Shown: positions 34,367 through 55,060 of the stretch, piece by piece
Numbering within the stretch: the first letter of the stretch is position 1
Layout: every line of letters begins with the position of its first letter
From: Escherichia coli
GTDB taxonomy: Bacteria; Pseudomonadota; Gammaproteobacteria; Enterobacterales; Enterobacteriaceae
Length of the DNA: 64,000 nucleotides
Assembly: GCF_046105845.1 (NCBI RefSeq)
Contig: NZ_CP151004.1
Reading direction: 5' to 3' (one strand)
Position numbers and translations under genes: made by a program
Notes under the pieces: model-generated
What the model was told of the DNA's origin: nothing
The model's database searches: none
What the model saw: the letters and a program-made list of their open reading frames with translations, nothing else

Positions 34367-35257
34367 ATGGATGCAAAACAAACGCGGCAGGGCGTATTAC
34401 TCGCTCTTGCCGCTTATTTTATTTGGGGTATTGCGCCAGCGTACTTCAAGCTGATTTACTACGTGCCCGCCGATGAGATCCTGACGCATCGCGTGATCTG
34501 GTCGTTTTTCTTTATGGTGGTGCTGATGAGCATTTGCCGCCAGTGGTCCTATTTAAAAACGCTGATTCAGACGCCACAGAAAATTTTTATGCTGGCAGTC
34601 TCTGCCGTGCTGATTGGTGGCAACTGGCTACTGTTTATCTGGGCGGTGAACAATCACCATATGCTGGAAGCGAGCCTTGGTTACTTTATTAACCCGCTGG
34701 TGAACATTGTGCTGGGGATGATTTTCCTCGGCGAGCGATTCCGCCGGATGCAATGGCTGGCGGTGATTCTGGCAATATGTGGCGTGTTGGTTCAGTTGTG
34801 GACTTTTGGTTCACTGCCGATTATCGCGCTGGGGCTGGCGTTTAGTTTTGCCTTCTACGGCCTGGTACGCAAGAAGATTGCTGTTGAAGCGCAAACCGGC
34901 ATGTTAATCGAAACTATGTGGTTGCTGCCCGTGGCGGCGATTTACCTGTTTGCTATTGCCGACAGCTCAACCAGCCATATGGGGCAAAACCCGATGTCAC
35001 TGAATTTACTGCTGATCGCCGCCGGGATTGTCACTACCGTACCGCTGTTGTGTTTTACTGCGGCTGCGACACGCCTGCGTCTCTCAACGTTAGGCTTTTT
35101 TCAGTACATTGGCCCGACGCTGATGTTCCTGCTGGCTGTGACGTTTTATGGTGAAAAACCGGGTGCCGATAAGATGGTGACCTTCGCCTTTATTTGGGTG
35201 GCGCTGGCAATTTTTGTGATGGATGCGATTTATACGCAGCGTAGAACGTCCAAATAA
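34367..35257 (+). CDS. rarD: DMT-family permease RarD
   Basis: 296-aa membrane ORF recognised as RarD. Confidence 0.92.
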   Translation: MDAKQTRQGVLLALAAYFIWGIAPAYFKLIYYVPADEILTHRVIWSFFFMVVLMSICRQWSYLKTLIQTPQKIFMLAVSAVLIGGNWLLFIWAVNNHHMLEASLGYFINPLVNIVLGMIFLGERFRRMQWLAVILAICGVLVQLWTFGSLPIIALGLAFSFAFYGLVRKKIAVEAQTGMLIETMWLLPVAAIYLFAIADSSTSHMGQNPMSLNLLLIAAGIVTTVPLLCFTAAATRLRLSTLGFFQYIGPTLMFLLAVTFYGEKPGADKMVTFAFIWVALAIFVMDAIYTQRRTSK

Positions 35258-35315
35258 AAAATAAATATATTCTGAAAAAATATGCCGACTCTTGCATGAG
35301 AGTGGGCATATTGCC

Positions 35316-35693
35316 ATGCTGACAGGAGACTCACATAAGAAAGGCAGAATTTCCAGACGTCGTTGTATATTTTCATTTGCTTTAATAAATTTCATTTTTG
35401 CCTTTCTTATTATCTTTTTTAACGATGGGGACGCAGGTTTTCTTGTTATTGTCTCTACCAACGCACTCCATTATCTCGTCATCAACATAAATTGCCAACG
35501 ACTCCGTGATAGTGGTTTCATATATATAAAAACTTATGTTTTTGGTACATTAGCAGTATATATCATCTCTATCATCACAATGATAGCCGAACATTTTGAT
35601 TGTTCAGGCAATGGTTCGATGATTTTTTTGATTTGTTATTTTTCCACTTTCAGTATGCTAATGCTTGCACCTACTGATTCATCAAAACAATAG
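35316..35693 (+). CDS. yigG: small inner membrane protein YigG
   Basis: AT-rich ORF encoding a hydrophobic protein ([35 protein letters not shown]...); first ATG used because the track start at 35292 is a TTG. Start uncertain. Confidence 0.65.
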
Positions 35694-35706
35694 TTATGGA
35701 GTATTT

Positions 35707-36087
35707 ATGAGTAAGGAATATATGAACGATGGTTCATTAAGTGAAAAATGGAAATACCGATTTAATTTTTATGATCAACATGGCTTTCCTGGATTCTGGG
35801 GGGCAACACCAGAATATAAAGCAGCATTTAAAACATTAAAAGTAAGACAACGATTAACTATTCAAATGAATTTCATTGCTTTCTTCTGTTCCTGGATCTA
35901 TTTATTTGTTCTGGGATTATGGAAAAAAGCAATTATAGTTCTATTACTTGGCATTCTATCTCTATTTGTTGGTGCACTAATTGGCGTTAACATTCTGGGA
36001 ATTGCCGTAGCAGCCTATGTTGCTGTTAACACGAACAAATGGTTTTATGAGAAAGAGGTAAAAGGGTTAAATACCTGGAGCCTTTGA
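35707..36087 (+). CDS. yigF: small inner membrane protein YigF
   Basis: ATG with GGAG ribosome-binding site about 11 nt upstream; 126-aa hydrophobic protein MSKEYMNDGSLSEKWKYRFNFYDQHGFPGFWG... recognised as YigF. Confidence 0.75.
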   Translation: MSKEYMNDGSLSEKWKYRFNFYDQHGFPGFWGATPEYKAAFKTLKVRQRLTIQMNFIAFFCSWIYLFVLGLWKKAIIVLLLGILSLFVGALIGVNILGIAVAAYVAVNTNKWFYEKEVKGLNTWSL

Positions 36088-52773: not shown

Positions 52774-52980
52774 AAAAAAACGCCTGCTCTTATTACGGAG
52801 CAGGCGTTAAAACAGGTCTGTATGACAACAAGTGGGTGCTTCACTCAACGTTGTGTCCATGGTGTCTGATGAGGCATAAGCGACATCTGTCAGTGGACGA
52901 TAAGCACCGTAAACGGCTCTGCGTCATTCCGGAGTTTATGAGGCACTAAGGCGAACATAAGAGATGGAATGAGCATCTAC
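52774..52980 (-). ncRNA. glmZ: GlmZ small regulatory RNA (SraJ/RyiA), activator of glmS translation
   Basis: Minus-strand sequence from GTAGATGCTCATTCCATCTCTTATGTTCGCC... to the terminator hairpin AACGCCTGCTCCGTAATAAGAGCAGGCGTTTTTTT matches GlmZ as I recall it; lies in the hemY-aslA intergenic region where glmZ is known to map. Confidence 0.85.
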
Positions 52981-52986
52981 TCGTTT

Positions 52987-52992
52987 ATTATG
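52987..52992 (-). promoter_or_regulatory. candidate -10 element of glmZ promoter
   Basis: Reverse complement CATAAT sits 7-12 nt upstream of the GlmZ 5' end. Confidence 0.35.
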
Positions 52993-53404
52993 CCACAGAG
53001 AACCGGGAAATAACATCCCTTAACACTTGTTATGAGATAATTCTGTAATCCTCTTTGCTTCCTGAGTAATAACTTCCTGAGTGAATATTTCTCCTGCGCA
53101 CGATTCTACACATATATATAATGAATAATAAAAGTCATTCAATTAATAACATATATATTAATTGCCGTTAAAACTAAAAACAGCATCAATAATCAACGCG
53201 ATATAACATCACCGCCTTACATATCACCTGCGCCAGAGGTAGGATTGAAAACGCTCTCCTGATTTTCCAATTCATTTTCTGGATAAATAAATAATTTATT
53301 TTTATCACTATTATTTATGCAATCATCCTGTCAGGGAGAGGGATCTCAATTATCAATGCTTAATTACGTCAACATTTTGACGACATGAAACCGGAGCATT
53401 TTGC

Positions 53405-55060
53405 ATGGAATTTTCGTTTTCACCCAAACTTCTTGTTGTGGCTGTCGCCGCCGCTCTTCCACTCATGGCCAACGCAGCAGATACCCCGTCAACCGCCACC
53501 GCACGCAAAGGCTTTGCCGGATACGATCACCCAAACCAGTATCTGGTTAAACCGGCGACCACTATTGCCGACAACATGATGCCGGTGATGCAGCATCCTG
53601 CACAAGACAAAGAAACCCAGCAGAAGCTGGCAGAACTTGAGAAAAAAACCGGTAAGAAACCGAACGTGGTTGTTTTCTTGCTGGATGATGTGGGCTGGAT
53701 GGATGTTGGCTTTAACGGCGGCGGCGTGGCGGTGGGTAACCCTACACCAGATATCGACGCCGTTGCCAGCCAGGGGCTGATTTTAACTTCGGCGTATTCT
53801 CAACCGAGTTCTTCCCCAACCCGCGCCACGATTCTTACCGGGCAATACTCCATCCACCACGGCATTCTGATGCCGCCAATGTACGGGCAACCGGGCGGTC
53901 TGCAAGGGTTAACCACTCTGCCGCAGTTGCTGCACGATCAGGGCTACGTCACTCAGGCCATCGGGAAATGGCATATGGGGGAAAACAAAGAGTCGCAGCC
54001 GCAGAACGTTGGCTTTGATGATTTCCGCGGTTTTAACTCGGTATCCGATATGTATACCGAATGGCGTGATGTTCACGTCAACCCGGAAGTCGCCCTGAGC
54101 CCGGATCGTTCTGAATACATCCAAAAACTGCCGTTCAGCAAAGATGACGTTCATGCCGTGCGCGGCGGTGAACAGGAAGCCATTGCCGACATTACGCCGA
54201 AATATATGGAAGACCTGGATCAACGCTGGATGGAATATGGCGTTAAGTTCCTCGACAAGATGGCGAAGAGCGATAAGCCTTTCTTCCTCTACTACGGCAC
54301 TCGCGGCTGTCACTTCGATAACTACCCAAATGCGAAATATGCGGGTAGCTCTCCGGCGCGCACCTCTTACGGCGACTGCATGGTGGAGATGAACGATATC
54401 TTCGCCAATCTGTATAAAGCACTGGAGAAAAACGGTCAGCTTGATAACACGCTGATTGTGTTCACCTCTGATAACGGTCCGGAAGCCGAAGTTCCGCCGC
54501 ACGGTCGCACACCGTTCCGCGGTGCGAAAGGTTCTACATGGGAAGGCGGCGTTCGTGTGCCAACCTTCGTTTACTGGAAAGGCATGATCCAACCGCGTAA
54601 ATCTGACGGTATTGTCGATCTGGCGGATCTCTTCCCAACCGCGCTGGATCTGGCGGGGCATCCTGGAGCGAAAGTGGCGAATTTAGTGCCGAAAACCACC
54701 TTTATCGATGGTGTGGACCAGACATCCTTCTTCCTGGGAACAAATGGTCAGTCTAACCGTAAGGCCGAGCACTACTTCCTCAACGGCAAACTTTCTGCTG
54801 TGCGTATGGATGAGTTCAAGTATCACGTCCTGATCCAGCAACCGTACGCGTATACCCAGAGCGGGTATCAGGGTGGATTCACCGGTACAGTAATGCAAAC
54901 GGCGGGATCGTCGGTGTTTAACCTGTACACCGATCCGCAGGAAAGCGACTCCATCGGCGTGCGCCATATCCCAATGGGTGTACCGCTACAGACCGAAATG
55001 CATGCGTATATGGAGATCCTGAAAAAATATCCACCACGCGCGCAGATTAAATCTGATTAA
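53405..55060 (+). CDS. aslA: arylsulfatase-family sulfatase AslA
   Basis: 551-aa ORF with signal peptide and sulfatase signature ([19 protein letters not shown]-x-P-x-R type motif), recognised as AslA. Confidence 0.93.

Follow-up and report, generated by a model that had tools for sequence, protein, structure and literature searches.

The 424-bp spacer that separates the small RNA gene glmZ from the arylsulfatase gene aslA in Escherichia coli is probably a divergent regulatory region composed of two independent halves: a σ70-only promoter for glmZ, and a control region for aslA in which a candidate promoter is flanked by AT-rich tracts suited to H-NS/StpA. The spacer lies in a 64,000-nt stretch of E. 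coli DNA (contig NZ_CP151004.1), hereafter called the window. Both of its ends are fixed by the flanking genes. On the minus strand, glmZ (52774–52980) is matched over its full length by the Rfam model RF00083 (GlmZ_SraJ, 218.4 bits, E = 1e-57), which places its 5′ end (+1) at 52980; on the plus strand, the open reading frame of aslA (53405–55060; "arylsulfatase AslA" in RefSeq) encodes a putative arylsulfatase of 551 aa. With the Rfam end at 52980 and the open reading frame starting at 53405, the spacer therefore covers 52981–53404, or 424 bp. A preliminary description of this DNA had drawn exactly these limits, from the GlmZ 5′ end to the aslA start, and had reported no assigned feature between them; the RefSeq records indeed annotate none under the spacer. 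The local gene order is hemX, hemY (plus strand), glmZ (minus), spacer, aslA (plus) and aslB (minus), an arrangement identical to that of K-12, where the counterpart of the spacer (3986008–3986431) has the same length. Among 5426 complete E. coli genomes, 5422 contain the spacer, and the present allele is 100% identical to that of strain 2012C-4221. The gene most likely controlled by this DNA is aslA.

The composition of the spacer is extreme for its surroundings. Its GC content is 0.337 and that of the window 0.525; among the 424-bp segments of the whole window, only 0.6% are as GC-poor, and the minimum over 200-bp segments of the spacer is 0.28. A pure A/T run of 23 nt occupies 53283–53305, and the A/T string quoted in the preliminary description is found at 53111–53164, so that its picture of a markedly AT-rich region with long A/T runs is confirmed. 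AT-rich block I (53100–53210, GC ~0.24) is situated upstream of the candidate aslA promoter described below and is a putative nucleation tract for H-NS/StpA; its AT-rich character is kept in 11 spacers from three genera. The 100-bp segment with the highest TpA density of the entire 64 kb (53107–53206, 18 TpA steps) falls here. AT-rich block II (53270–53320, GC 0.157) is situated downstream of the candidate promoter and holds the 23-nt run. The sole other AT-rich trough of comparable depth in the window is at 35205–36074, where GC content falls to 0.295 over 200 bp; an A/T run of 20 nt is found there at 35252, and predicted curvature peaks at 35536.

The glmZ half of the spacer is compact. Within 40 bp of the start site, the minus strand reads ATGTTA-N15-TGGCATAAT-N6-G(+1) (52987–53016). 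It consists of a σ70-type −10 element with a TG extension (TGGCATAAT, 52987–52995), of which CATAAT occupies −12 to −7, and, N15 apart, the −35 element ATGTTA (53011–53016). The identical string ATGTTA-N15-TGGCATAAT has been given as the Escherichia glmZ promoter by Göpel et al. (2011; NAR 39:1294, PMC3045617), and the expectation of the preliminary description that the glmZ promoter would be found inside the tract on the other strand is thereby borne out. The glmZ gene is 100% identical to that of K-12, the −10 element is unvarying in five E. coli alleles, and a single SNP is found in the promoter spacer of the present allele. A generic promoter scan returned only two matches on the minus strand, both ~330–340 bp from glmZ and not above shuffled sequences. 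The present locus fits a σ70-only glmZ promoter of Göpel group III (Escherichia/Klebsiella), with the form ATGTTA-N15-tggCATAAT and CATAAT at −12 to −7.

In most Enterobacteriaceae, as in Salmonella and Yersinia, glmZ is preceded by an enhancer module with GlrR, σ54 and IHF elements, and the preliminary description had held that the tract must contain such upstream activator sites. Searching for GlrR sites (TGTC-N10-GACA), as that description had proposed, yielded none at up to two mismatches in the 424-bp spacer (mean of 1.4 in shuffled sequences). No σ54 promoter (TGGCAC-N5-TTGCA) was matched at up to three mismatches between −40 and −1 of glmZ, nor did the IHF consensus WATCARNNNNTTR match anywhere within 52981–53404. 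The same searches succeeded on positive controls from other genera (Salmonella, Citrobacter koseri and Enterobacter cloacae), each of which gave three GlrR sites near −150, −215 and −247 and a σ54 promoter TGGCAC at −27 with one or two mismatches. Published experiments on the K-12 locus concur: a −424 to +32 fragment was not bound by GlrR in EMSA, its expression in lacZ fusions was unaffected by ΔglrR and ΔrpoN, and the DNA upstream of −40 was dispensable, while a −10 mutation, a −35 mutation or deletion to −20 abolished expression (PMC3045617). An enhancer module in the present tract therefore has next to no likelihood left, being refuted by the sequence searches together with the negative results on the K-12 fragment of identical length. 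By analogy with the K-12 experiments, the present glmZ allele would likewise be independent of GlrR and RpoN, and the 40 bp adjoining glmZ would act as a constitutive, σ70-only promoter free of any GlrR/σ54/IHF enhancer.

Comparison with K-12 indicates where the remainder of the spacer may be under selection. The two alleles are 94.6% identical and differ at 23 sites, 18 of which are confined to 53091–53152, which is hypervariable, and 53207–53227; the intervening segment, 53153–53206, is identical. Elsewhere in the spacer at most 2.3% of positions differ, compared with 15% at third codon positions of aslA; the comparison implies, as far as sequence divergence can indicate, that most of the AT-rich DNA is under constraint. 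An elevated divergence of the spacer as a whole was considered and rejected, because its identity to K-12 matches that of aslA itself (94.4%) and the differences lie in two small patches. The aslA gene is in its own right unusually divergent from K-12, with this identity of 94.4%, the 15% difference at third positions and nine amino acid changes; hemY is 96.8% identical with no amino acid change. In E. coli FDAARGOS_401 (locus L006, 824–961), all that is left of aslA is a 138-bp stretch with a pseudogene annotation, directly followed by aslB, showing that aslA is dispensable in some strains.

On the aslA side, phylogenetic footprinting of 11 aligned aslA–glmZ spacers from Escherichia, Pseudocitrobacter and Kluyvera, which are barely alignable outside Escherichia, revealed one motif with fixed spacing, (C/T)TTACA-N18-TA(A/G)GAT, in 11 of 11. 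It is situated 101–159 nt ahead of the aslA ATG, and composition-matched shuffles contain it at a rate of about 5e-4 per spacer. In the present allele the motif reads CTTACA-N18-TAGGAT on the plus strand (53216–53245; CTTACA at 53216–53221, TAGGAT at 53240–53245), and each hexamer matches the σ70 consensus at four of six positions across an 18-bp spacer. Among E. coli alleles, both hexamers stay identical inside a patch that otherwise varies. The motif core is relatively GC-rich (0.37–0.47) in all 11 spacers, and the AT-rich flanks are kept on both sides (0.19–0.32 upstream and 0.23–0.37 downstream). We take CTTACA-N18-TAGGAT as the most promising candidate promoter of aslA. The segment just after the −10 hexamer, TGAAAACGCTCTCCTGAT (53246–53263, plus strand), is invariant or has one change in seven Escherichia sequences and is presumed to be the initial transcribed region. 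The predicted start of aslA is about 53251, with a leader of ~153 nt; the supplements of Kim 2012 contain no entry for an aslA start site. In E. coli FLI21 (locus L005, 2288–2985; equivalent to about 53264–53272 of the window), an IS1 element interrupts the spacer shortly after the candidate promoter and cuts aslA off from the greater part of its control region.

Under this model, aslA transcription would begin near 53251 and produce a leader of ~150 nt in which a small hairpin precedes the Shine-Dalgarno sequence. The proximal part of the leader (53327–53404, plus strand) is conserved. It includes the hairpin or palindrome CGTCAAcattTTGACG (53367–53382), which as a whole spans 53367–53384, 21–38 nt ahead of the aslA ATG, and the Shine-Dalgarno sequence GGAG (53393–53396), which precedes the ATG by 8 nt. 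The palindrome persists across other Escherichia, both arms being changed (GTCATCA/TGATGAC in K-12, GACATCA/TGATGTC in E. albertii), and its register in the window allele is shifted relative to K-12 (CGTCAA/TTGACG). For the putative leader RNA as a whole the structure statistics are weak, with a minimum free energy z-score of −1.34 against shuffles and an alifold covariation term of +0.2. A long-range stem that would pair 53252–53263 with 53330–53341 either does not vary or is disrupted by changes on one side, and the small leader hairpin alone shows one two-sided change, a weak support by covariation. Separately, the octamer TGAAAACG (53246–53253), after the candidate −10 hexamer, is perfectly complementary to CGTTTTCA (53415–53422) in aslA codons 4–6; this 8-nt complementarity is conserved in Escherichia, and the two segments may or may not share one transcript.

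Two other readings of this half place function elsewhere. The block just beyond −40 of glmZ (53017–53050) is near-invariant in Escherichia alignments even though it is dispensable for glmZ, and contains promoter-like motifs directed toward aslA: TTAACA (53020–53025), 18 bp, TGTAAT (53044–53049), and an extended −10-like TGaGATAAT (53033–53041). The first of these was the predicted aslA promoter of Shimada 2014 (PMC3946193), being the best match under a peak of RpoD holoenzyme in genomic SELEX. If aslA were transcribed from this distal site (53020–53049), back to back with the glmZ promoter, the AT-rich tract would become a ~355-nt leader that controls elongation through Rho/H-NS-type termination or RNA structure. 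However, the assignment was made computationally beneath a peak of low resolution, and the glmZ promoter listed in the same table is ~340 bp off the true one. In addition, the −10 hexamer has a G at its critical second position and decays in other Escherichia (TGTACC, TGCAAC), and the block is not conserved in Kluyvera or Pseudocitrobacter, where the proximal motif is kept. Transcription from the distal site is accordingly unlikely, without being negligible. Far less probable still is a hidden gene for a small protein or sRNA, a reading encouraged by strong conservation in parts of the spacer and by two 40-codon open reading frames on the minus strand (53020–53142 and 53186–53308). These frames start with TTG or GTG and cross hypervariable and indel-bearing parts of the Escherichia alignment, Rfam gives no match other than GlmZ at E ≤ 1, and the predicted RNA structure is not better than that of shuffled sequences by the z-score given above. 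Between the conserved distal block and the hypervariable patch lies a 15-bp tandem duplication, CTTCCTGAGTAATAA/CTTCCTGAGTGAATA (53058–53087), that is peculiar to E. coli and unvarying among its alleles. It contains a perfect 9-bp direct repeat, TTCCTGAGT, with a 15-bp period. The repeat was considered as a regulator site and rejected, as it is a product of this E. coli-specific duplication and other Escherichia species lack it.

The proximal candidate, CTTACA-N18-TAGGAT, is thus a relatively GC-rich σ70-like core that would be set between two AT- and TpA-rich tracts (53100–53210 and 53270–53320), and the preliminary description had suggested that the region is of a curved or H-NS-silenced type. 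Curvature was calculated with our own wedge-model script, using Bolshoy/Trifonov wedge parameters; control sequences gave 14 deg/turn for phased A-tracts and 2.7 for unphased ones. For the spacer the mean is 3.2 deg/turn and the window median is 2.75, which places the spacer at the 31st percentile with no excess over shuffles; the AA/TT signal at 10.5 bp has less than average power. No A-tract phasing is thus seen, and the idea of a curved promoter is not supported. A scan with the 10-mer H-NS consensus (tCGATAAATT-like), the other prediction called for in that description, found its best match (8/10) at 53280–53289 in block II, and the density of matches in the spacer does not exceed that of composition-matched shuffles, which means that composition alone accounts for it. 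In composition the spacer fits an H-NS-silenced region: GC content is 0.337 overall and falls to 0.24 in block I and 0.157 in block II, and the top TpA density of the window lies here. We infer that its AT-richness would act through composition and minor-groove character and not through intrinsic curvature.

Published data bear on H-NS-type silencing from both sides. In genomic SELEX, the aslA–glmZ spacer was scored both as an RpoD-holoenzyme site and as an "HNS" site (Shimada 2014; PMC3946193, Table 1). An RNA-seq study compared wild type, Δhns, ΔstpA, Δhns ΔstpA and netropsin-treated samples (Nature 2025, PMC12460168). Its row for aslA consists of five groups of five counts at about 98, 157, 76, 627 and 588, with log2 fold changes of 0.71, −0.26, 2.78 and 2.68 and adjusted P-values down to 6e-144. 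Given this list of samples, the two ~7-fold rises (2.78 and 2.68) therefore most likely belong to the Δhns ΔstpA double mutant and to netropsin, the columns being assigned from the order in the text and the count ratios. On the other side, Δhns alone changed aslA by a logFC of 0.48 (P = 0.13, not significant; glmZ, 0.10), the genes listed as "H-NS bound" in the same study do not include aslA (Forrest 2022; PMC8894471), and the basal aslA transcript level is measurable. Nothing relevant to binding of H-NS or StpA at the spacer was found in Higashi 2016 or Srinivasan 2015. As a separate observation, a substitution in aslA, L507F (K-12 3982512 in that paper's coordinates), is listed among mutations of evolved Δhns ΔstpA populations (supplement of Srinivasan et al., 2015). 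The silencing proposed in the preliminary description thus survives in part: in vitro binding and the rise in the samples assigned to H-NS/StpA removal or displacement speak for it, and the Δhns result, the published list and the basal transcript weaken it. Redundant silencing of aslA by H-NS and StpA is plausible, its directness unproven, and the derepression in Δhns ΔstpA or with netropsin could be indirect. Mechanistically, H-NS/StpA bound on either side would bridge or coat the aslA promoter and keep basal aslA expression low, as suggested by the in vitro SELEX signal together with the ~7-fold derepression.

The same data can be read with H-NS playing no specific part. The AT-richness would then be ordinary promoter or UP-element-like composition, aslA would answer to specific regulators that respond, for example, to sulfur, envelope stress or host signals, and its rise would be an indirect effect. 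Such a reading accommodates the non-significant change in Δhns and the absence from the bound list (PMC8894471), the lack of curvature and of any excess of consensus matches, the indirect response of aslA to RpoE/LL-37 in E. coli K1, and the finding that genes that were not horizontally transferred went up and down in about equal numbers (Nature 2025, PMC12460168). It sits less well with the in vitro binding of H-NS (PMC3946193), with a GC content of 0.16–0.25 over two tracts and a TpA peak that is the highest of 64 kb, far beyond typical intergenic composition, and with two independent removals of H-NS/StpA, by the column assignment given above, that led to the same rise of aslA. On balance this reading seems rather improbable, and a candidate promoter between putative H-NS/StpA tracts is preferred.

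The relation between the two halves was followed across genera in a survey in which the 5′ 20-mer of glmZ was scanned through one genome per species, giving 95 loci. A divergent aslA 402–436 bp from the glmZ +1 was found only in Escherichia (four species-level genomes), Pseudocitrobacter and Kluyvera. In these loci the upstream 300 bp have a GC content of 0.25–0.36 and contain neither GlrR sites nor a σ54 promoter. Most other genera have TGGCACnnnnnGTGCAATAAT with two or three GlrR sites and a GC content of 0.41–0.50. Where aslBA is absent, the upstream neighbor of glmZ is a gene for a 461-aa permease, which from its sequence and position we take to be yifK. Escherichia, Kluyvera and Pseudocitrobacter have the aslB–aslA pair between yifK and glmZ, and in all three the glmZ enhancer is missing.

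Other lineages in the survey show further arrangements. In Klebsiella and Raoultella (L031, L054, L055, L065, L079, L086, L087, L090) no aslA is found beside glmZ, and in the two checked, K. pneumoniae and R. ornithinolytica, the upstream neighbor is the permease gene taken as yifK. Their glmZ promoter, GATGCAATTTCCnCGGAnCCTGTGCGATAAT, is of the σ70 type, resembles those of Escherichia and Kluyvera, and has no GlrR sites; the resemblance hints at a shared origin that may have been followed by loss of aslBA. Loci like those of the Citrobacter freundii complex (L007, L012, L022, L026, L045, L047, L069, L075) keep a σ54-like core, TGGCAT/CCGCAT...GTGCAATAAT, and no TGTC-N10-GACA was found in their upstream 300 bp at up to one mismatch. 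One locus (L098) from a contig labeled Chryseobacterium sp. 18061 has an enterobacterial glmZ with a Citrobacter-like promoter and probably comes from a mislabeled or contaminated assembly.

A tentative scenario, which we regard as possible and no better than that, would join these observations. In the ancestor of Escherichia, and likewise in Kluyvera and Pseudocitrobacter, the aslB–aslA pair would have been placed together with its AT-rich spacer between yifK and glmZ; this would have removed the GlrR/σ54 enhancer of glmZ and left the old −12/−10 core as a constitutive σ70 promoter, thereby rewiring the GlmY/GlmZ cascade. The sandwich of AT tract, promoter and AT tract would then serve as a facultative H-NS/StpA silencer of aslA that a host-responsive counter-silencer opens. 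If true, the silencer sandwich would be relevant to the role reported for aslA in invasion by E. coli K1. aslA often appears among the virulence factors listed for meningitis-associated E. coli.

The spacer is in itself ordinary, and its main features are already in the literature. In particular, the region explains why glmZ of E. coli is constitutive, unlike glmY and unlike glmZ of Salmonella and Yersinia, a point already published. Two points are added here, both of which we infer: a conserved candidate promoter for aslA between AT-rich tracts, and a correlation in which loci with aslBA beside glmZ lack the glmZ enhancer. The former offers a candidate promoter and a silencing architecture for a poorly understood sulfatase gene, and the latter would be a modest evolutionary footnote.

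The closest known system is the K-12 aslA–glmZ region dissected by Göpel et al. (PMC3045617). It is the same locus, with the same length of 424 bp, 94.6% identity and an identical glmZ promoter string, and GlrR, σ54 and IHF elements are missing there as they are here. The present spacer differs from it as a distinct allele with 23 substitutions clustered in the two patches at 53091–53152 and 53207–53227, and the published dissection did not address the aslA side. The group I/II glmZ promoters of Yersinia and Salmonella occupy the same position by a near-identical glmZ and have a homologous −10/−12 area (GTGnnATAAT). However, they combine a σ54 promoter with three GlrR sites and IHF, and all DNA upstream of about −17 is unrelated to that of the present locus.

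For the aslA half, the relevant parallels are H-NS-silenced promoters with both upstream and downstream silencer tracts, namely the bgl operon and proU with its URE and DRE. Compared with these, the aslA tracts are short (~110 and ~50 bp) and aslA itself is of normal composition, a single hns mutation hardly affects aslA, its basal expression is above zero, and no counter-silencer is known for it. Silencing is putative at aslA, where binding is known from SELEX in vitro. As at bgl and proU, a weak σ70 promoter, here the candidate, would lie between AT-rich tracts, H-NS binds the DNA in vitro, and expression of aslA goes up once H-NS and StpA are absent or netropsin displaces them, by the column assignment given above.
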